Notes under the pieces: model-generated
What the model saw: the letters and a program-made list of their open reading frames with translations, nothing else
The model's database searches: none
Told to the model about the DNA's origin: nothing
Assembly: GCA_007376445.1 (NCBI GenBank)
Contig: VMGF01000002.1
Span: 13,673 to 77,672, forward strand
Direction of reading: 5' to 3'
Source: Parcubacteria group bacterium Gr01-1014_3
GTDB taxonomy: Bacteria > Patescibacteriota > Minisyncoccia > UBA6257 > WO2-44-18
Length of the DNA stretch: 64,000 nucleotides
Shown here: positions 1,888 through 43,075 of the stretch, piece after piece
Layout: each line of letters starts with the position of its first letter
How positions within the stretch are numbered: position 1 is the stretch's first letter
Position numbers and translations under genes: made by a program

Positions 1888-3363
1888 ATGACCGCGAATT
1901 GGGGAGACGTCGTTTTGAAATTTAATAAAGTCAGCTTTGCCTATGGACCGAAGAAAACCATTTTGGATTCGGTTGATTTTGTTATCCGCGAAAGAGCCAA
2001 GCTTACCCTGATGGGGCAGAACGGCGCCGGCAAGTCCACTATTTTTAAATTGATCTCTAAAGAGATTCAGCCGGAGGAGGGTTCGATCAATATTAAAACC
2101 GGCGCCACGATTGCTACTTCGATGCAGGTGATACCAAAAGATTGGATGAATGACACCGTGATCCAGTACTTTGAGCGCGCTTTTTCTAAAAAAGTTTATG
2201 ACATTGAGCCTCGCATCAATAAGATATTGAATGTAGTTAACCTGAAAGCGGACCTGAAGAAAAAAATGAATCAGTTCTCCGGCGGCCAACAGGCTCGTTT
2301 GCTTTTGGCTTTCGCCCTCATTCAGAACCCAGACATTCTTTTATTGGATGAGCCTACTAATAATCTCGATAAAGTCGGCATTGAGCATCTGACCAAATTT
2401 TTGATTGAGTATTCTAAGACCTGCGTGGTTATTTCTCACGACGCGCACTTTCTGAACTCATTCACCCACGGAGTTTTATATTTAGATAATTTTAGCGGTA
2501 AGGTTGAGCAGTATGTCGGTGACTATATGAAAGTAGTAGCGGAAATCGCTATACGAATCGAGCGTGAGCGGAAAAAGAACGCGATGTTAAAAAAGGATAT
2601 AGAGAACCGCAAAGAGCAGATGAATTATTTCGCGCAAAAAGGTGGAAAAATGCGTGATGTCGCGAGGAAAATGCGGGAAGCTATCCAAGAACTCGAATCC
2701 CAGCTGGTGGATCTCCGTCAAGAAGATAAAACCATCAAAGATTTCATTATTCCAGTGCAGTCTTTTGAGGGATCGGAGCGTCCGGACTGGAAGATTGTGG
2801 AGATAAAGGCGGTGAATATCATGACGACCGGCAAGCCGTCGGCGAAGAAGGTAAATATCGTTTTAAAGCGGAAAGAGAAGCTTTTGATATCTGGCCCTAA
2901 TGGTATCGGCAAAAGCACTCTACTGGAGGCTTTAGCGAGTGGTAAGGCTAAGGGTATGGGTATCTCCGATGACATTAAGATCGGATATTATAAGCAGGAC
3001 TTTTCCGGTCTGGATTTTGACGAGACGGTTTACAAAACCCTCTCGGACGCGATGACCGGCGGTTCGGATCAGGAACTACGTTCGGCGGCCGCCCAATTTT
3101 TACTGGACGCTGATCTATTGAATAATAAAGTGGGCTCGCTTTCCGAAGGTCAAAAAGGACTGCTTTCTTTCGCACGATTTGTTCTGCAGCGACCTGGCTT
3201 ATTGATCATGGATGAGCCGACTAATCACATCAACTTCCGCCACTTGCCAGCGGTCGCCAAGGCTTTAGATAAGTTTGAAGGCGCGTTGATTCTCGTTAGT
3301 CACTCGCCAGAGTTTATCAAGCAGATCAATATTGATCATAAATTGGACCTTGGGGATTTATAA
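1888..3363 (+). CDS. ABC-F family ATPase (two tandem ABC domains, no TMD)
   Basis: Two Walker A motifs (GQNGAGKST, GPNGIGKST). Two signature motifs (FSGGQQARL, LSEGQKGLL). Two Walker B motifs (LLLDEPTN, LIMDEPTN). Confidence 0.8.
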   Translation: MTANWGDVVLKFNKVSFAYGPKKTILDSVDFVIRERAKLTLMGQNGAGKSTIFKLISKEIQPEEGSINIKTGATIATSMQVIPKDWMNDTVIQYFERAFSKKVYDIEPRINKILNVVNLKADLKKKMNQFSGGQQARLLLAFALIQNPDILLLDEPTNNLDKVGIEHLTKFLIEYSKTCVVISHDAHFLNSFTHGVLYLDNFSGKVEQYVGDYMKVVAEIAIRIERERKKNAMLKKDIENRKEQMNYFAQKGGKMRDVARKMREAIQELESQLVDLRQEDKTIKDFIIPVQSFEGSERPDWKIVEIKAVNIMTTGKPSAKKVNIVLKRKEKLLISGPNGIGKSTLLEALASGKAKGMGISDDIKIGYYKQDFSGLDFDETVYKTLSDAMTGGSDQELRSAAAQFLLDADLLNNKVGSLSEGQKGLLSFARFVLQRPGLLIMDEPTNHINFRHLPAVAKALDKFEGALILVSHSPEFIKQINIDHKLDLGDL

Positions 3364-3365
3364 AA

Positions 3366-3497
3366 CCGAAACTAACTCTTTTTCAGAACCAGAATAACCG
3401 GCCTCCAGCGGGCCGGTTTTCTTCTCTCTCGGTGGTTTTTAAACCAAGCAAAACCGCCTCCGAGATGTTCCGAAAAAGAGTTAGTTTCGGTTTTTTT
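3366..3497. repeat. structured ~130-nt repeat / candidate ncRNA, copy 1 (long closing helix, internal hairpins, 3' T-run)
   Basis: ccgaaactaactcttttt at 3366-3383 pairs with aaaaagagttagtttcgg at 3473-3490. Internal hairpin ccggcctccagcgggccgg. Homologous copy at 39574-39724. Confidence 0.5.
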
Positions 3498-4437
3498 ATT
3501 TAAGCAGTCCTTTAAGATTTTCCAGCGCGGATTTTAGTGCGTCGAGAAGCGAGGCGGTGGCGTTTTGAGTATTTGCAGAAGAGCAAAGACTGGCGAAGTT
3601 GGTGCCGCCGGATTCATCGTACCAGTACCGATAATGCAGAGTTCCATCCGGGTCCATAAGCTCCGGATCGAAACCGCCATACATCCCTCCTTGCTTAAAT
3701 AGCAAAATATCTTTATAGCAGACGGCGCCTGGCGCGTTGGAGTTAGACGCTGTTTTATCATAGAACCTAATTGGCTTGGTATGATCCGTGAAGGTGTATT
3801 TAGCAGGGTCTGTGAATTCGCAGATGTTTTTAATGCCAATATAATTCAATTCATTAATATCCTCACAAGGTGAGTAGCCAGTGATCGGGTTAACATTAGC
3901 TACTGTATTAGCTGGATCTCCGGCATAAAGAAAGGCGCGTTTGTCCCTGGGCGATACTCCAGCATACAAGAAACTGCCGGTGCCAAAGTTAATGTATCGG
4001 TTAGGAAGAACGGTGCCGGTACCAGTTTTAATGACCGGCTTTGGGGCTGGAGCGGGCGCCGGAGCTGTAGCTGGTGATGGAATCGGCGTTGGCGTTGGCT
4101 GAGGCGCTGGAGCTGGCGTACCCGCCTGGGCTCGAATTGTGGTGAATTTTGCCCTTGTTATTGGCCCAACTATACCAACGGCTTCAATTCCATTTTTAGC
4201 CTGCCATCTTTTAACGGCCGCTTCAGTCAGTAAGCCAAAGTATCCGGTTACCAAACCTTCTGGATAAACATCTTTATACTGCGCCAAGAAAGTTTGGAGC
4301 AGGCGAACGTTCTCGCCGCGGATGCCTACGTATAATGGAGTGGTTAATACTGGTGGCAATATTGATGAAGCAGTCTGCGCGGAGGCTATCGTGGCCAAAC
4401 CCAAAAACAACGAGCTCAAAAGTGTTTTTTTTACCAT
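3496..4437 (-). CDS. secreted protein with peptidoglycan-binding (PG_binding_1-like) domain and Pro/Ala-rich linker
   Basis: Signal peptide MVKKTLLSSLFLGLATIASAQ. Start trimmed to ATG at 4437 (complement of 4435-4437). PG-binding-like LLQTFLAQYKD…GYFGLLTEAAVKRWQAKNG. Linker PAPAPQPTPTPIPSP. Confidence 0.6.
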   Translation of the reverse strand: MVKKTLLSSLFLGLATIASAQTASSILPPVLTTPLYVGIRGENVRLLQTFLAQYKDVYPEGLVTGYFGLLTEAAVKRWQAKNGIEAVGIVGPITRAKFTTIRAQAGTPAPAPQPTPTPIPSPATAPAPAPAPKPVIKTGTGTVLPNRYINFGTGSFLYAGVSPRDKRAFLYAGDPANTVANVNPITGYSPCEDINELNYIGIKNICEFTDPAKYTFTDHTKPIRFYDKTASNSNAPGAVCYKDILLFKQGGMYGGFDPELMDPDGTLHYRYWYDESGGTNFASLCSSANTQNATASLLDALKSALENLKGLLK

Positions 4438-4528
4438 AGTTAAATTATAGCATCCCATACATAATTTGTTATGTGTGGGATAGCAAATTGAATAAAAATA
4501 AGCCGCTGATTGCGGCATTCGGTCTTGT

Positions 4529-4602
4529 TGGCTGGGGGGCTAGGAATCGAACCTAGATCTGCTGCTCCAAAGGCAGCCGTGTTACCATTGCACTACCCCC
4601 CA
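4529..4602 (-). tRNA. tRNA-Gln (anticodon UUG)
   Basis: The reverse complement folds as a cloverleaf. Acceptor stem UGGGGGG/CCCCCCA with U1-A72, G73 and encoded CCA. Anticodon stem GCUGC/GCAGC with loop CUUUGGA. T-arm CUAGG-UUCGAUU-CCUAG. Confidence 0.85.
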
Positions 4603-5268
4603 ATAATTACAGATGTGGTCTACCCAGGCGGAAATTTTTCTATTTAGATTCGTGCTTTTCCGCACTATGATTCTCAGTAATCCATTATAGGCGATTCCCG
4701 TATTTTTTCGACCAGTCTTTAGTTTATGCTCCTTGAAATATACTTTAATTTTTCTCTTATCGCAAGACACTGTTTTTGCCCAAAAACTCAACGCCTTTTC
4801 GATATCCGCGGTGTTATGTATATATAAAGCGAAGGCGATTTCATTTTTCGGTATTTTTATAATTGTTAACAACCAGCCTAAAAATACCTTTATCATTTTT
4901 GGATCAGAATTATTAAAATTTACTTGCTGGCTGACCAGGTGTTCCTTTGCTTTTGAGCCCTCAGCCCAATAGAGCATAATACCGGCAAGCCATAAATGAT
5001 CATTGTTGAGTTCTCGCATTTCTTGAAAAGCCTCATTTTTAATTTGATCCATAAGAGTAAGGCGTTGCTGATGTCTGGCAATCGCGCCCCTTTGTTGAGC
5101 AAGAATTTTCTTTTTAGTTAGGCGCCGATGTGTTTGTTTTGCTAATGCAACCGAATGTAGCCATGACGATAATGTTGATTTTGCAACCGGAATTTGCGCC
5201 AAAATTTCGGAGTAGGTTAGCCCCCGCCTTCTTAGGATTATTGCCTGCGTTTTTGGATCACTTTTCAT
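4582..5268 (-). CDS. hypothetical protein with N-terminal HTH; weak LAG…EG-like motif (possible homing-endonuclease-like)
   Basis: HTH-like GLTYSEILAQIPVAKSTLSSWL. Motif WLAGIMLYWAEGSK. The last ~20 nt overlap the 5' end of tRNA-Gln. Confidence 0.4.
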   Translation of the reverse strand: MKSDPKTQAIILRRRGLTYSEILAQIPVAKSTLSSWLHSVALAKQTHRRLTKKKILAQQRGAIARHQQRLTLMDQIKNEAFQEMRELNNDHLWLAGIMLYWAEGSKAKEHLVSQQVNFNNSDPKMIKVFLGWLLTIIKIPKNEIAFALYIHNTADIEKALSFWAKTVSCDKRKIKVYFKEHKLKTGRKNTGIAYNGLLRIIVRKSTNLNRKISAWVDHICNYWGVVQW

Positions 5269-36861: not shown

Positions 36862-37613
36862 TTAAGAACTAAACTCCGATTTGATGTAGTTTTCGAGAGT
36901 GGTCAAATCAAAGCTCGCGATTAATCTACATTCCTTACCATCCCAGCCGATAACTAAGGGGTCTATATTTAGACGACCCTCTTCCCAGGCGGCTTCTGTG
37001 ACGACAAAAACTTTATGCACATGCCATTTAGTATGTCCATTCGTTGTACACTCAGTAAAATCAAGTTGTTTAAATTCTTCTCTCGCAGTAAGAATTTTTT
37101 CACGAATTTCATATGGAATAAGCCCCTTGAATTCCATTGCCAAGTTCAATCCTCTACTTTTAGAGGGTACTATTTGAACTAAACCATCCAACATAGCCTC
37201 GCGGATAGCGTATGGCAGTCCCATGGGATATCTGATATAACTACTATTCTCTATTTGGCATACTGCTTCATAGTCATGTTCGGCGAATGGATCAAAAATC
37301 GCCAAACTTGGGAATCCCTTTTTATTTCTCCACTTAAAAACATGCGTGGAAAGCTTAGTGGGATACTTGAGTGAAATCTTTTGTTTAATTAGCTTCGGCA
37401 GGCGATTATCTATGGATTCAATACTCTTTCTGATTTTTGTTTTAGCGTGGAATTCAATTGCTAATAGCTGGTCGAGCTTCCTCTCTAAAAATTGCTTTTC
37501 TTTTATCAACTTATCGATTTCATCAATAACTTCTTCTAACTTCTCTTTCTGACTAACTTCTTTTGAGCAATACTTCAATGCCTCTTTAATAGGATTAGTA
37601 GTAATTTCGGTCA
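36862..37613 (-). CDS. hypothetical protein (~250 aa), N-terminal coiled coil
   Basis: Start trimmed to ATG at complement 37611-37613 after a gccgaaaggcagaagggagc leader (MTEITTNPIKE…). Confidence 0.4.
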
Positions 37614-37917
37614 TCGCTAGCTCCCTTCTGCCTTTCGGCATGTAAATGAACTTGCAATAAAATACCATTTTATATGGATTACGTCAATTCAAAGAAAACG
37701 CCCATCTCCACAAGGGGACAGGCGTTTTCTAAGAATAAAATATTCACAACGAGAAATTATCTGTCCCTAATGGGTTGGATTTAGCACCTTACGGTAAAGC
37801 AGGTTGCTGGAGCTTCATAGGGCCAAGACCCTCGGCTCACTCTTGATAATATTTCGTTGTCAAAGTTCAAGTGCTTATTACAACCGCTATCCTATCAGAT
37901 TGGTTTCCTTAGGTCAA

Positions 37918-38423: not shown

Positions 38424-39494
38424 ATGAAATTAAGTATCGGCATCGTGGGGTTGCCAAACGTCGGTAAGTCCACCTTGTTTAAAATCCTCACGAAAAACGA
38501 GGTAAATATCGCCAATTATCCATTCTGCACCATTGATCCGAATGTGGGTGTGGTTAGCGTACCCGATGAACGGCTGGATCAGCTCGCCAAGATGAGTAAG
38601 TCGGCTAAGATCATCCCAGCGATCGTGGAATTTTATGATATTGCCGGTCTGGTCAAAGGCGCTAACAAAGGCGAAGGTTTAGGTAATCAGTTTTTAACTC
38701 ACATCCGCGAAACCGACGCGATCGTAATGGTACTCCGGGTATTTAAAAATGAAGAAATCATCCACGTGGAAAATTCCGTGGATCCGATCCGCGATATGGA
38801 AATCATCAACACCGAGCTAGCCCTGAAGGACTTGGAATCGGTGGAAAAACTTTATAAAAAAGCGGAAGGCGAGTCTAAGATCGGCGGTACGCCGGCGCAA
38901 AAACAAGCAATTAAAGATTTTGAAGCCGTCAAAAAAATTAAATCAGTCCTGGAAGCCGGTCAAAATTTAAATACTCCGGAATTTGCCGAAGCCTTGGAGA
39001 ACGAAAAAGTTGCCGCGTTAAATTTGCTCTCCGGAAAAAAGCAGATCTATTTACTCAACGGAAAACTCGAAGATGTCTCCGAAGAATTAAAAAAGAAGAT
39101 CGCGGAGAGGCTTGCCCGCAGTAGCTTCAGCGAAGGCGGGGGAGGATATGTGATTATGGATTTATCTATAGCCACCGATATACCGGAGCTAGTTAAAAAG
39201 GCCTACGAAGTGCTCGGCCTAATCAGCTTCTTTACCACGGGCGAAGATGAGACCCGCGCCTGGACTATTAAGAAAAACAGCAAAGCTTCGCAAGCCGCTG
39301 GCGCGATCCATACTGATTTTGAAAAGAAATTCATCCGCGCGGAAGTAGTTAACTGGCAAAAATTACTCGAAGCCCATTCGGCGAGCTCAGGGCAAGCCGG
39401 TTGGTCCGCCGCCAAACAAAAAGGCTGGATGCGTTTAGAGGGTAAGGACTATATCGTACAGGATGGCGATGTTATGGAGATTAGGCATGGCTAG
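38424..39494 (+). CDS. ychF: ribosome-binding ATPase YchF (Obg family)
   Basis: GIVGLPNVGKSTLF. TGS-like C-terminus. ~356 aa. Confidence 0.9.
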   Translation: MKLSIGIVGLPNVGKSTLFKILTKNEVNIANYPFCTIDPNVGVVSVPDERLDQLAKMSKSAKIIPAIVEFYDIAGLVKGANKGEGLGNQFLTHIRETDAIVMVLRVFKNEEIIHVENSVDPIRDMEIINTELALKDLESVEKLYKKAEGESKIGGTPAQKQAIKDFEAVKKIKSVLEAGQNLNTPEFAEALENEKVAALNLLSGKKQIYLLNGKLEDVSEELKKKIAERLARSSFSEGGGGYVIMDLSIATDIPELVKKAYEVLGLISFFTTGEDETRAWTIKKNSKASQAAGAIHTDFEKKFIRAEVVNWQKLLEAHSASSGQAGWSAAKQKGWMRLEGKDYIVQDGDVMEIRHG

Positions 39495-39503
39495 ACTTAT
39501 TGG

Positions 39504-39539
39504 GTCTATAGGCTAATTCGCACGAATTAGCCTATAGAC
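39504..39539. repeat. perfect 36-bp palindrome (gtctataggctaattcg·cac·gaattagcctatagac)
   Basis: Read directly from the sequence. No flanking T-run on the + strand. Confidence 0.6.
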
Positions 39540-39573
39540 GGGGTAATGGAAATCCGTCATGGATAAGGGCTCC

Positions 39574-39724
39574 AGCCAACTATTTTTTCGGAAACAGAAT
39601 AATCCGGCTCCAGCAGCCGGATTTTCTTCGCCCTCGGCACGCCGCTCCGACCTAATAGGTCGGAGACCGATTATAGGATAGTCCAGCCGGCGCGCCTCCG
39701 GGATGTTCCGAAAAATTAGTTGTC
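39574..39724. repeat. structured ~150-nt repeat / candidate ncRNA, copy 2
   Basis: The 5' 60 nt and 3' 25 nt align with 3366-3497. Stem-preserving changes in the ccggcYccagcRgccgg hairpin. Variable middle. Confidence 0.5.
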
Positions 39725-39764
39725 CTCCGCCTTGTTAAATAAAGGAAAATTTTTAAATTAAAAA

Positions 39765-39801
39765 GACCCGCAAGGCTGTGATACAGCTAACCTTGCGGGT
39801 C
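39765..39801 (-). terminator. rho-independent terminator
   Basis: gacccgcaagg…ccttgcgggtc followed by a T-run on the minus strand. Confidence 0.65.
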
Positions 39802-39820
39802 TCACCGGGTTGGAGGCGGT

Positions 39821-40093
39821 TTAGGCGACTTGCCGGGTCGATTCGTCTTCGTCGAGAAGGCTCTTCACGTCCTCGACGCTCTTGAAATCGGTCACCAGAG
39901 TCGTCCAGCCTTCGAGTTCGGAAAGGGTGATCAACACCCTCTTGCCGAGCTTCTCTTCGATGTACGGCGGATACTCTCGATCCTTGGGCTTGCGGAACGT
40001 CATCGTCACCGGCCTCGACCTGTTGTCCTTGTCACCGGCGTCGCGGCCACCACAAAGTAGCACTTCCAGCGCGCCAAACATGAGCTTCTTCAT
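39821..40093 (-). CDS. small secreted/lipoprotein-like hypothetical protein
   Basis: MKKLMFGALEVLLCGG signal/lipobox-like N-terminus. RBS GGAGGT. Terminator downstream. Confidence 0.4.
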   Translation of the reverse strand: MKKLMFGALEVLLCGGRDAGDKDNRSRPVTMTFRKPKDREYPPYIEEKLGKRVLITLSELEGWTTLVTDFKSVEDVKSLLDEDESTRQVA

Positions 40094-40296: not shown

Positions 40297-40701
40297 ATGC
40301 CCAAAGAAGTTTCACCAGAACATTTAGCGATCGAACAGGATATCGCGGCTATATCGGCCGATCTTAAAGCCCGCCGCGGCGGGCAAGCTCGCAAAAACGC
40401 GGAGCAAGGAATATCAAAAGAAGATATGAAGTCCGCCGTGAGCACGAGGATTGAAAGTTCACCCGCCCCTGGCGCTAGTTCGTCCTCACAAAGCTCGGCC
40501 TCCACGCTTCCTTCATACACTCAAAACGCTCCGGAAGAGGTGCGTCTCAAAATAGAGAAGCTTATTGATCTCGCCTGGCATAAAGGAATCTGGCGGGCGG
40601 TTCAGGAAGCTAAGAACAGCGACCCGCTGACCTTGGACGCGTTGCACGACGCGTTAACGGATAAGATCTACGAAGAATTCAAAAAGCGGGGATTACTATG
40701 A
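40297..40701 (+). CDS. hypothetical protein with Ser/Ala-rich low-complexity centre
   Basis: 134-aa ORF. No domain recognised. Confidence 0.35.
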   Translation: MPKEVSPEHLAIEQDIAAISADLKARRGGQARKNAEQGISKEDMKSAVSTRIESSPAPGASSSSQSSASTLPSYTQNAPEEVRLKIEKLIDLAWHKGIWRAVQEAKNSDPLTLDALHDALTDKIYEEFKKRGLL

Positions 40702-40744
40702 ATAGTCGAAAGTTCGTAAAGTCAAAAGTCCTTAAAGCACATTA

Positions 40745-43075
40745 ATGTATAACGCACTTTTAATTTCTTTCGGAATTCCGCTGGTAGTTTTTCTGATCGG
40801 AATCGGCGTAGCCGTGGCGGTTAAAAATCACCGGAAAAGATTTCTTGGAGTTTTAAATTTAAAACCCCTGATTGTCACGCTACGTCAGAAAACCGATGGT
40901 GATAAAAAAGATCCACTCGCTGAAATCAGCCTTTCCAGTCAGCTTTTTAGTTTACTGACCAACCTCAAAAATCCCTTCTCACTCGAACTTGCCGTGCATA
41001 ATGTTGGCGAAGACATTCATTTTTATATTTCCGTGCCGGAAGATTCGATCGATTCGGTGAGCCGTCAAATTCAAGGACTATGGTCCGAGGCGGATGTGCG
41101 GAAAGCGGGGGATTACACTATTTTTAATTCCGGCGGAGTGGCCCGCGTGGCATTTTTAAAACAAAAGAATCATTACGCTCTTCCGGTCCGGACTTATACT
41201 GAAGCTGGTCTGGACACCTTTTTAACTATCCTGAATAATTTTTCCAAGGTAGAGATGGTAGGGGAGGGTTTGGCTCTCCAGGTAGTGGCGAAACCGGCTC
41301 AATCCAGCACGGTAAAAAATATAGACAGGATGATCATGGGGCTTAAAAAAGGCGTGAAGTTATCCGATGCCTTGAATGGCAAAGTTTCACTGCCAACGCC
41401 GAAAAAAGATGAAGTAGCGCCACAAATCATTGTTGATGAAGAAGCAGTCAAAAATCTGATCTCCAAGATCTCTAAACCGCTTTTTGAGGTGAATGTGCGC
41501 CTAGTCGCGTCCGCTATGTCGGCTTATCGCTCAGAGGAACTTTTAAATAACTTAAGCGCCGCCTTTTCTCAGTTTACCGCCCCAAACCGGAATGAATTCA
41601 AGGTTAATGAACCGGCCAATCCTTCCAAGCTGATTTTTAAATATATATTCCGCCAGTTCGATTCCTCAGAATCGATGACTCTAGGCGCCGATGAATTAGC
41701 GAGCATATTTCATTTCCCAACTTCCACCACCGAAGTTCCGAAGGTTAAATGGCTTAAATCTAAAGAGGCCCCACCGCCAGCCGTCTTGCCGGAAAATGGC
41801 GTGGTGATCGGCGAAAGCCGCTTCCGAGGCGAAGTTAAAACCGTCAGAATAACCGACGAAGACCGCCGGCGCCATGTTTATATCATCGGTCAGACGGGTA
41901 CCGGTAAATCCACCCTGCTTATCGAAATGGCCGCTTCCGATATCGCGGCTGGAAAAGGTTTGGCCGTCATCGATCCACACGGCGATCTGATTGATTCTAT
42001 CCTTGCCCACATCCCAAAGAATCGGGTGGATGATGTGGTGGTATTTGATCCGGGTGATACCGACCGGCCACTTGGTTTGAATATGCTTGAGTACAACCCA
42101 GCGCGACCGGAGGAGAAAACTTTTATCGTCAACGAGATGCAGAGTATTTTCAATAGACTTTTCACCGCTGAAACCATGGGCCCGATGTTTGAACAGTACA
42201 TGCGGAACGCGCTTTTGCTTTTAATGGATGACCCAAATGAAAAAGCGACCTTAATGGAAATTCCCCGCGTGTTTACCGATGCCGAATACCGGAAACGGCT
42301 GATCGCCAAGGCGAAAAATCCGGCGGTGATTGATTTCTGGGAAAAGGAAGCCGTGAAAGCCGGTGGTGATGCTTCGCTCGCGAATATGACGCCTTACATC
42401 ACTTCGAAATTCAACAATTTCACATCCAACGACTACATCCGGCCAATCATTGGCCAGCCGGTGTCAGCCTTTAATTTCCGGAAGATCATGGATGAAGGCA
42501 AAATCCTTTTAGTTAATCTTTCGAAGGGCAAGATAGGGGATATCAACTCCAATCTTCTGGGCATGGTAATCGTTGGTAAAATTCTGATGGCCGCGCTGTC
42601 CCGCGTGGATCTGCCACAAGAGCAGAGAAAGGACTTTAACCTGTACATAGATGAGTTCCAGAATTTCACCACGGATTCTATTTCCACGATTCTTTCCGAG
42701 GCCCGGAAATATCGTCTGAACTTGATAATCGCGCACCAATTTATCGGCCAATTAAATGAAAAAATCCGGAACGCGGTGTTTGGCAACGTAGGGGCGCAGA
42801 TAGTCTTCCGGGTAGGGGCCGAAGATGCTGATTTTCTCATAAAACAGTTCGAGCCGGTCTTTTCCAAGCAGGATCTGCTTAATATTGACAATTTTAATAG
42901 TTATGTTAAAATGCTCGTGAACGGTCAGACAACCAAGCCGTTCAACATAGCGCTATTGGCGCCTAATAAGGGAATCCCCGGTTTAAGCTCAAAATTAAAG
43001 GAATTATCGAGATTAAGATATGGTAAGCAAAGAGCGGAAGTAGAGGGGGATATCCTGGGGCGTTTAAGGGGCTAA
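40745..43075 (+). CDS. membrane-anchored P-loop ATPase of the FtsK/HerA superfamily (VirD4/TraG/DUF87-like)
   Basis: N-terminal TM. Walker A YIIGQTGTGKSTLL. DPHGDL. Walker B-like LYIDEFQNF followed by ARKYRLNLIIAHQFIGQL. ~370-aa N-terminal region of unknown function. Confidence 0.55.
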   Translation: MYNALLISFGIPLVVFLIGIGVAVAVKNHRKRFLGVLNLKPLIVTLRQKTDGDKKDPLAEISLSSQLFSLLTNLKNPFSLELAVHNVGEDIHFYISVPEDSIDSVSRQIQGLWSEADVRKAGDYTIFNSGGVARVAFLKQKNHYALPVRTYTEAGLDTFLTILNNFSKVEMVGEGLALQVVAKPAQSSTVKNIDRMIMGLKKGVKLSDALNGKVSLPTPKKDEVAPQIIVDEEAVKNLISKISKPLFEVNVRLVASAMSAYRSEELLNNLSAAFSQFTAPNRNEFKVNEPANPSKLIFKYIFRQFDSSESMTLGADELASIFHFPTSTTEVPKVKWLKSKEAPPPAVLPENGVVIGESRFRGEVKTVRITDEDRRRHVYIIGQTGTGKSTLLIEMAASDIAAGKGLAVIDPHGDLIDSILAHIPKNRVDDVVVFDPGDTDRPLGLNMLEYNPARPEEKTFIVNEMQSIFNRLFTAETMGPMFEQYMRNALLLLMDDPNEKATLMEIPRVFTDAEYRKRLIAKAKNPAVIDFWEKEAVKAGGDASLANMTPYITSKFNNFTSNDYIRPIIGQPVSAFNFRKIMDEGKILLVNLSKGKIGDINSNLLGMVIVGKILMAALSRVDLPQEQRKDFNLYIDEFQNFTTDSISTILSEARKYRLNLIIAHQFIGQLNEKIRNAVFGNVGAQIVFRVGAEDADFLIKQFEPVFSKQDLLNIDNFNSYVKMLVNGQTTKPFNIALLAPNKGIPGLSSKLKELSRLRYGKQRAEVEGDILGRLRG

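Follow-up and report, generated by a model that had tools for sequence, protein, structure and literature searches.

Between two convergent genes in the analysed stretch of Parcubacteria DNA (64,000 nt, referred to here as the window) lies a sequence of about 130 nt whose ends are complementary to each other. It raises the question of whether such an element is a structured RNA, a mobile repeat or an ordinary terminator. The flanking genes encode an ABC-F ATPase (1888-3363, plus strand) and a peptidoglycan-binding-domain protein (PG_binding_1; 3496-4518, minus strand), which bears out the convergent setting given by the initial annotation. The 18-bp closing repeat reported there is exact: ccgaaactaactcttttt (3366-3383) is the reverse complement of 3473-3490. 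The perfect inverted repeat is in reality 22 bp long (3362-3383 and 3473-3494) and becomes a closing helix, P1, of 27-28 bp once an inner GAA/TTC segment is added. By an arithmetic estimate, about 1e-6 perfect inverted repeats of 22 bp within 200 nt would be expected per 64 kb. The 146-nt region folds with -66.8 kcal/mol on the plus strand and -72.3 kcal/mol on the minus strand, against about -29 and -34 kcal/mol for shuffled sequences (z = -10.1 and -9.5, respectively), and none of 200 shuffles was equally stable. The whole element, copy 1, measures 133 nt (3362-3494) as delimited by the inverted repeat, the folding and a covariance model hit. It is assigned to the minus strand, the strand inferred below as structurally selected.

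The P1 arm beside the ABC-F gene (3362-3388, minus strand) pairs with 3468-3494 and belongs to columns that covary, while the opposite arm (3468-3494, minus strand) is defined by the inverted repeat and the minus-strand fold, in which P1 forms 28 continuous pairs. At position 3385 an A faces the C of 3471, which makes an A.C mismatch on the plus strand and a G.U pair on the minus strand. The two hairpins that had been noticed inside the helix were recovered as P2 (3391-3422) and P3 (3426-3464), both assigned to the minus strand. P2 is supported by the fold, by a covarying stem and by a loop and flanks that are conserved at about 100% in an independently ascertained set of sequences. On the plus strand it reads AGAA-U-AACCGGCC-U-CCAGC-G-GGCCGGTT-TTCT, and on the minus strand a C-G pair closes its GCUG loop and two A are bulged. 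P3, supported by the fold and by three compensatory pairs relative to the ortholog L118, consists of a 3-bp base (CTC/GAG), an internal loop TC/TCC (GA/GGA on the minus strand) and a 9-bp stem. Its loop carries a conserved ACCAAGC (GCUUGGU on the minus strand), and in copy 1 it takes its minimal form, from which an inner hairpin is absent. The T-run at which the element had been said to end does exist in copy 1 (3491-3497), but it is missing from copy 2 and from L118 and is not a feature of the family.

The TAA stop codon of the ABC-F gene (3361-3363) overlaps the first bases of the helix. A truncation of this gene by insertion of the element was considered and rejected, as its orthologs all stop at the same residue; the difference in length (491 vs 505 aa) is N-terminal. 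Beyond the other neighbouring gene, a tRNA-Gln(UUG) is found at 4529-4602 on the minus strand. Its 5' end is overlapped by a mechanically called ORF (4582-5268, minus strand) whose true start probably lies further in.

A homologous copy had been proposed near 39.57 kb and was recovered by motif search, alignment and covariance model. This copy 2 spans 168 nt (39566-39733, minus strand). The motifs common to both copies are found nowhere else in the window, where the motif search gives an expectation of 0.00-0.01, and the covariance model retrieves the two copies (129 bits at 39561-39743, 123 bits at 3356-3505) and no third match. The helices of copy 2 are P0 (39566-39570/39729-39733), P1 (39577-39593/39706-39722), P2 (39596-39627) and P3 (39631-39702), the last of which contains the extra inner hairpin. 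When the two copies are aligned, compensatory differences appear in every helix.

Copy 2 lies downstream of ychF (38424-39494, plus strand). YchF and the ABC-F ATPase are both 100% identical to proteins of Parcubacteria group bacterium Gr01-1014_3, which places the window on a CPR/Patescibacteria chromosome. In the ortholog of copy 2 the element abuts the ychF stop codon, whereas in the window a duplication of the 3' end of the gene and a palindrome are interposed. The live gene ends at 39494 and the interposed region is 39495-39567. A perfect 16+16 palindrome, occurring once within the window, follows ychF at 39505-39538. Downstream of it is what remains of the ancestral C-terminus, GGGGTAATGGAAATCCGTCATGGATAA, a sequence that can be aligned with the genuine end of ychF in the ortholog L001. 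This arrangement looks like the insertion of a small hairpin cassette that brought a replacement C-terminus. On the other side, copy 2 is separated from a small convergent ORF (39821-40093, minus strand) by a long GC-rich hairpin (39764-39806) preceded by AAAAA on the plus strand, which is the predicted minus-strand intrinsic terminator of that ORF. The synteny around 40297-43075 comprises ychF, a gene for a 134-aa protein and one for a 776-aa VirD4/TraG-like coupling ATPase (DUF8128 + T4SS-DNA_transf). The block is conserved across the Parcubacteria sequences L001, L002 and L004, with copies of the element at different block borders in each genome. The same part of the window carries a SAM-I riboswitch (69.7 bits; 37754-37852, minus strand) upstream of a 268-aa ORF without Pfam match (36862-37668, minus strand), a candidate for an uncharacterised SAM- or methionine-related gene of a CPR genome.

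Further copies, a search for which the initial annotation had recommended, turned out to be numerous. The loci syntenic to ychF yielded two more, one orthologous (L001) and one in a different place (L004). A scan of a genome collection with a pattern centred on P2 returned at least 113 loci. Among the matches listed, real hairpins were confined to Patescibacteria/Parcubacteria MAGs, whose groups include Azam-, Colwell-, Wolfe-, Harrison- and Liptonbacteria, Paceibacterota and TPA assemblies labelled 'Saccharibacteria'; the matches outside the CPR were due to chance and were rejected by the covariance model. This model (CM R1), built from 47 sequences, found 106 strong matches when run on the 0.9 Mb of DNA that had been fetched, and a clear interval separates scores of about 87 bits from the noise. 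A metagenome scan with an unrelated 3' motif (ACCAAGC...CTGCGGGATGTTCC) added 79 loci, 80 model matches and 66 distinct sequences. Together, the two independent pattern scans and the covariance model account for at least about 150 distinct copies, exclusively from Patescibacteria/Parcubacteria genomes and groundwater metagenomes; in a viral collection three pattern matches were obtained and none was confirmed by the model. In DNA that had not been selected for the element, its density is estimated at about one per 30-45 kb. Several individual MAGs have at least 5-8 copies on different contigs, and up to three copies occur within 8 kb.

Many of the carriers are MAGs titled 'uncultured Candidatus Saccharibacteria bacterium' (L004, L014, L091 and other TPA assemblies with CA...-prefixes). 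Their YchF and ABC-F proteins are 75-80% identical to Parcubacteria proteins, and the label is probably generic or wrong.

The element has no counterpart in Rfam 15 on either strand. Over the whole window, Rfam 15 at its gathering threshold matches only the SAM riboswitch and the tRNA. With both copies, both strands and E values up to 10, the best Rfam 15 match reaches 21.6 bits against a cutoff of 70, and all matches are at chance level. A description of the element was not found in the literature on ncRNAs, structured RNAs, repeats, MITEs and riboswitches of Parcubacteria, Patescibacteria or the CPR. The sole CPR RNA system met there, TIGR-Tas, consists of tandem arrays adjoining a tas gene and was judged unrelated. 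The element is a real, previously undescribed, lineage-specific and multi-copy family of Parcubacteria (Paceibacteria-type CPR).

The initial annotation had asked for folding of both copies and for covariation in an alignment, and this evidence shows conserved structure that extends far past the terminal repeat. Across the 69 sequences of the genome set, standard pairs are formed by 94.9% of the cells, against 73.7% after shuffling, double changes affect 25 of the 33 pairs, and a control in which the partners were slid gave at most 60% pairing. Since these sequences had been picked by 5' motifs, the metagenomes were scanned with the unrelated 3' motif. The 66 distinct sequences obtained in this way show 94.7% pairing against 72.6% after shuffling and double changes in 27 of the 33 pairs. 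The observed pairing was reached by none of 500 shuffles in either set. In the metagenome set the 5' junction, the P2 loop and its flanking bases are still 95-100% conserved. The stems of P2 and P3 covary, all 10 P1 pairs show double changes, and even the base of P2 covaries, as divergent members replace AGAA/UUCU with AGCG/CGCU. Mutual information recovers all the helices, extends P1 and P3 and uncovers non-canonical covariation of two junction positions, where A.G alternates with C.U or C.C. As far as can be judged from aligned sequences, the element thus shows, in an independently ascertained alignment, the covariation that would be expected of a conserved structured RNA.

The architecture of the family combines an almost invariant centre with variable arms. 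P1, often perfect, has a median length of about 20 bp and a maximum of about 40 bp. Its sequence is unrelated from copy to copy, and in some subfamilies a 2x2 internal loop and an outer helix are added. P1 caps a conserved three-way junction with P2, which has a variable 6-7-bp stem between invariant flanks and an invariant loop, and P3, which has a 3-bp base, an asymmetric internal loop, a variable stem and a conserved 7-nt bulge. The inner hairpin of P3 is optional, as copies 1 and 2 illustrate. A K-turn was considered for the GA loops, but the 3-nt bulge is followed by GA out of register and the assignment is not claimed. In a 278-nt relative (L048:5504-5781) the closing-helix junction (GGAAACAGAATAA ... 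GCGGGATGTTCC) is unchanged and a UCCAGCG hairpin resembles P2, while the interior is larger and different, which hints at a wider superfamily.

The strand on which this structure is selected does not seem to be the one read by the initial annotation. On that strand, which corresponds to the plus strand of the window, the helices of the metagenome set contain 75 A.C cells and 8 G.U cells, and those of the genome set 62 and 20. The imbalance holds at interior arm positions (51 vs 15, p=1e-5) and in arms when only distinct contexts are counted (44 vs 15). An A.C on the annotated strand is a G.U on its complement. The complement also folds more stably in 55 of 65 copies, and its RNAalifold consensus has -50.6 kcal/mol and 43 pairs, 33 of them compensated, against -27.3 kcal/mol and 33 pairs for the annotated strand. 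Finally, the pyrimidine loops UC/UC and UC/UGC read GA/GA and GA/GCA on the complement, where the P2 loop of the family becomes a C-G-closed GCWG with a bulged A. Two features fit the plus strand better, namely the nearly invariant U.G closing the top of P2 and the G.U-rich outer P0 helix of one subfamily. Because of the wobble asymmetry, the consensus energy, the stability of individual copies and the GA-type loops, the structurally selected strand is most likely the minus strand of the window. A signal in double-stranded DNA cannot explain the wobble asymmetry, but the folding of single-stranded DNA could produce it as well. Since the fold is selected on one strand, the active form of the element would be a nucleic acid in the single-stranded state, a transcript being the simplest candidate.

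The position of the copies relative to genes was examined with rough ORF calls. The orientation classes of 65 copies number 20, 19, 17 and 9, the rarest being the intergenic regions between divergent genes (9/65), and the orientation of the element relative to its neighbours is only weakly biased. On the 5' side of the annotated strand, the helix and the end of a co-oriented gene are usually 5-30 nt apart (most of 41 cases), the modal distance between stop codon and core being 26-30 nt, while the spacer on the other side is about 100 nt. Read on the minus strand, the element therefore has a spacer of about 100 nt on its 5' side and none on its 3' side, and it is tail-to-tail with the gene that ends against it. 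TAG stops are enriched among such genes (16/28, or 57%, vs 91/365, or 25%, elsewhere). The conserved end of the element, (U)AGGGGCUCGG, seems to supply the stop codon of some of them, and in L011 a coding region runs into the arm of the element. Housekeeping genes with no relation to one another make up the neighbours. Of the protein families encoded by the 384 ORFs within 3 kb of the copies none is enriched, those of transposases, RTs and nucleases included, and no transposase cluster was found, nor did the 0.9 Mb of fetched DNA contain a split or ORF-bearing copy.

Sigma-70-like promoters are not enriched upstream of the element on either strand, and the AT-rich boxes that visual inspection suggested 5-12 nt upstream of the minus-strand 5' end are not significant. 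A helix followed by a U-tract (5 or more T in the next 8 nt) is found in just 8 of 57 copies on the plus strand and 4 of 58 on the minus strand, while a terminator-like score is obtained on either strand for P2 together with its U-rich tail. The initial annotation had already held that copy 1 is not a 5' riboswitch, and the family agrees with it: a riboswitch or other 5' cis-regulator was rejected because the copies have no consistent upstream, co-oriented position, rarely lie between divergent genes (the 9 of 65 above) and have unrelated neighbours. A retron msr-msd was likewise rejected, since no RT-like cluster lies beside the copies and there are tens of them per genome, as was an integron attC site, since the ends have no R''/R' boxes (RYYYAAC...GTTRRRY) and the copies are single and scattered after housekeeping genes.

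Comparisons between relatives show how the copies persist and change. In GCA_041643015.1, whose proteins are 87-93% identical, orthologous elements are present at both loci of the window. Copy 1 and L118 differ by at least 6 compensatory pairs; three consecutive ones are in P3, and in P1 a U-A is replaced by a C-G. The overall conservation of copy 1 (81%, against 72-79% for the coding flanks) is to be taken as no higher than that of its flanks. Copy 2 is 89.6% identical to its ortholog (L001:1727-1906), whereas the flanks reach 70% and 54%. The ortholog has also kept an AT-rich block of 30 nt that lies upstream of copy 2. In relatives at about 75-80% protein identity, the elements are missing from these loci or found at other positions. 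One MAG has four copies with an identical core and unrelated arms; in another, the arms and P3 are common to the copies and P2 differs. Such mixtures of cores and arms suggest that modules may be exchanged or subject to gene conversion. Decayed copies also exist, and three of them keep the same half. A 5' truncation indicative of retroposition was considered and rejected, as retention of this half is expected from the search pattern; low-scoring metagenome matches are divergent copies rather than truncated ones. Two filled/empty comparisons (L002 vs L004) revealed no target-site duplication, at about 80% protein identity and with blurred junctions. The possibility that a terminator hairpin was there first and received the core in its loop was discarded, as the two empty sites have no prior palindrome. 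The outer arms of copy 1 do resemble a terminator in L119, but at a different locus, and this resemblance is probably a coincidence.

Several scenarios may explain these observations. The one we favor, to which we give about an even chance of being correct, is that the element is an orphan structured RNA module that multiplies as a repeat and faces gene ends tail-to-tail, with its minus strand being the functional one and a candidate role at transcript ends. Copies would spread by duplication or recombination of whole elements or of modules, as a non-autonomous repeat, and would survive where a convergent gene has its stop codon immediately next to the minus-strand 3' end. The least secure step is that a protein or an RNase might recognise the RNA as a module, with the long perfect helix as a possible substrate of the RNase III type and the junction as a surface for specific binding. 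Where genes are closely packed, the ends of their transcripts would then be defined or insulated by the module, as they are by elements of the ERIC, REP and BOX types in other bacteria; this role in transcript-end definition or processing is proposed by analogy with ERIC and REP and from the RNase III-like helix. ERIC/IRU of the Enterobacteriaceae, BOX, RUP, bcr1 of the Bacillus cereus group and RPE of Rickettsia measure about 100-200 nt and are scattered through intergenic regions, with tens of copies in either orientation near gene ends. Their two ends pair into a long hairpin, none of them contains a gene of its own, and their presumed effect, exerted by the RNA, is on how stable transcripts are or how they are processed. 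The element resembles them in its dispersed intergenic copies, its end-paired long hairpin, its placement at gene ends and its lack of an own gene. Nevertheless, families of the ERIC type conserve their entire sequence, including the ends, between copies, while here the helix is copy-specific and only the branched core is conserved; the taxon (CPR) and the sequence are also different.

Alternatively, each copy could be a functional member of a trans-acting or catalytic RNA gene family, that is, an independently transcribed sRNA, an RNP scaffold or a self-cleaving ribozyme. The nearly invariant junction and loop nucleotides, purine-rich on the minus strand and preserved across lineages of candidate-phylum level, would be expected in that case. 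So would the non-Watson-Crick covariation between junction positions (A.G / C.U), the spacer of about 100 nt found on the 5' side and not on the 3' side, the AT-rich block kept upstream of copy 2 in its ortholog and the retention of the junction motifs in the longer variant. Yet the family shows neither a general promoter signal nor a terminator, tens of copies with copy-specific helices would be unusual for a trans-acting RNA, and no ribozyme or sRNA model of Rfam matches, so that we consider this scenario unlikely, albeit worth keeping in mind. Parallels can be drawn with orphan ncRNA motifs from comparative genomics, such as HEARO, which are also defined by conservation and covariation and have a highly conserved junction and multiple copies. 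HEARO and the omega-RNAs have an IscB or TnpB gene beside at least some of their copies, whereas no such gene accompanies the element.

A more speculative version, which we hold to be rather improbable, makes the three-way junction the active centre of a new CPR-specific RNA, either a self-cleaving or self-processing ribozyme or a SINE-like, RNA-mediated mobile element. If it were true, the ribozyme would excise itself from read-through transcripts, and the SINE-like form would need the fold for its own propagation. It would also explain the near-invariant junction, the covarying helices and the exchange of cores between copies.

In the context of DNA transposition, the element could be a classical MITE, a non-autonomous transposon with an incidental RNA structure and with terminal inverted repeats to which a transposase encoded at another locus binds. 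The initial annotation had seen a likeness to either a structured ncRNA or a MITE. The sequences are indeed a conserved, structured and dispersed repeat, but their arms vary and covary in a way that terminal repeats of the transposase type do not. A dispersed multi-copy intergenic repeat with inverted ends is what a MITE would look like, as are the presence and absence between relatives, the decayed copies and the stop codons supplied by the element; Correia/NEMIS elements are likewise small, non-coding, multi-copy, patchily distributed among relatives and stop-codon donors. Nevertheless, the arms of the copies are wholly different, which leaves no common site for a transposase. In addition, P2 and P3 covary inside the element around conserved loops, and the wobble asymmetry of 75 to 8 indicates selection on a single strand, which a double-stranded terminal repeat does not provide. 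No transposase is found among the roughly 380 neighbouring ORFs, the orthologs are stable over about 10% of protein divergence, and no target-site duplication appeared in the two filled/empty comparisons, whose junctions are blurred at about 80% protein identity. In contrast to Correia/NEMIS, the element has no conserved terminal sequence, and neither a partner IS nor a target-site duplication was seen, while the fold of a single strand is selected. A MITE origin is therefore distinctly unlikely.

The same low probability is given to a site that folds as single-stranded DNA for an enzyme of the HUH or tyrosine type (an IS200/IS605-derived PATE, a REPIN or an attC-like site), with one DNA strand being active. 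This would account for the strand-specificity of the structural selection, for a conserved fold with a variable sequence, for the short motif (TAG) that one side abuts and for dispersed copies without an adjacent gene. Structure- and strand-dependent recognition and dispersed intergenic copies are also shared with REP/REPIN-RAYT systems and IS200/IS605 PATEs. Against it, no Y1 or RAYT transposase and no integrase was seen beside any of the roughly 150 copies, the two ends are paired together instead of forming separate left and right hairpins, cassette arrays and an R'/R'' (GTTRRRY) box are absent, and tandem-GA loops and a tetraloop with a bulged A are typical of RNA. REP/REPIN-RAYT systems and PATEs have simple or paired hairpins of conserved sequence and an identifiable HUH transposase, while the core of the element is branched, its arms are variable and no HUH gene was seen nearby.

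That the convergent genes are separated by nothing more than a bidirectional intrinsic terminator of the ordinary kind, or by a palindrome arisen by chance, can hardly be the explanation: the A-tract and T-run flanking the long hairpin of copy 1, its convergent genes and the terminator-like scores of P2 and its U-rich tail on both strands agree with a terminator, but the scarcity of U-tracts (8/57 and 4/58 copies, and none in the copy 1 ortholog) and a conserved, covarying branched core that termination does not need refute it as a sufficient explanation, while shuffle folding and the motif-expectation counts exclude a chance palindrome.

The interest of the family lies partly in its hosts. 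The CPR/Patescibacteria have tiny genomes and, to our knowledge, almost no ncRNA biology has been described in them beyond rRNA, tRNA, introns and a few riboswitches. The element takes up roughly 0.4-0.5% of such Parcubacteria genomes and, with its presence in several Parcubacteria lineages, is among the best-supported orphan structured elements of the CPR radiation. A covariance model of it would improve the annotation of Parcubacteria MAGs in their intergenic regions, gene ends and stop codons. If the favored RNA module were to be merely a selfish repeat, it would still show that a structure-dependent repeat without any protein of its own can persist in extremely reduced genomes.
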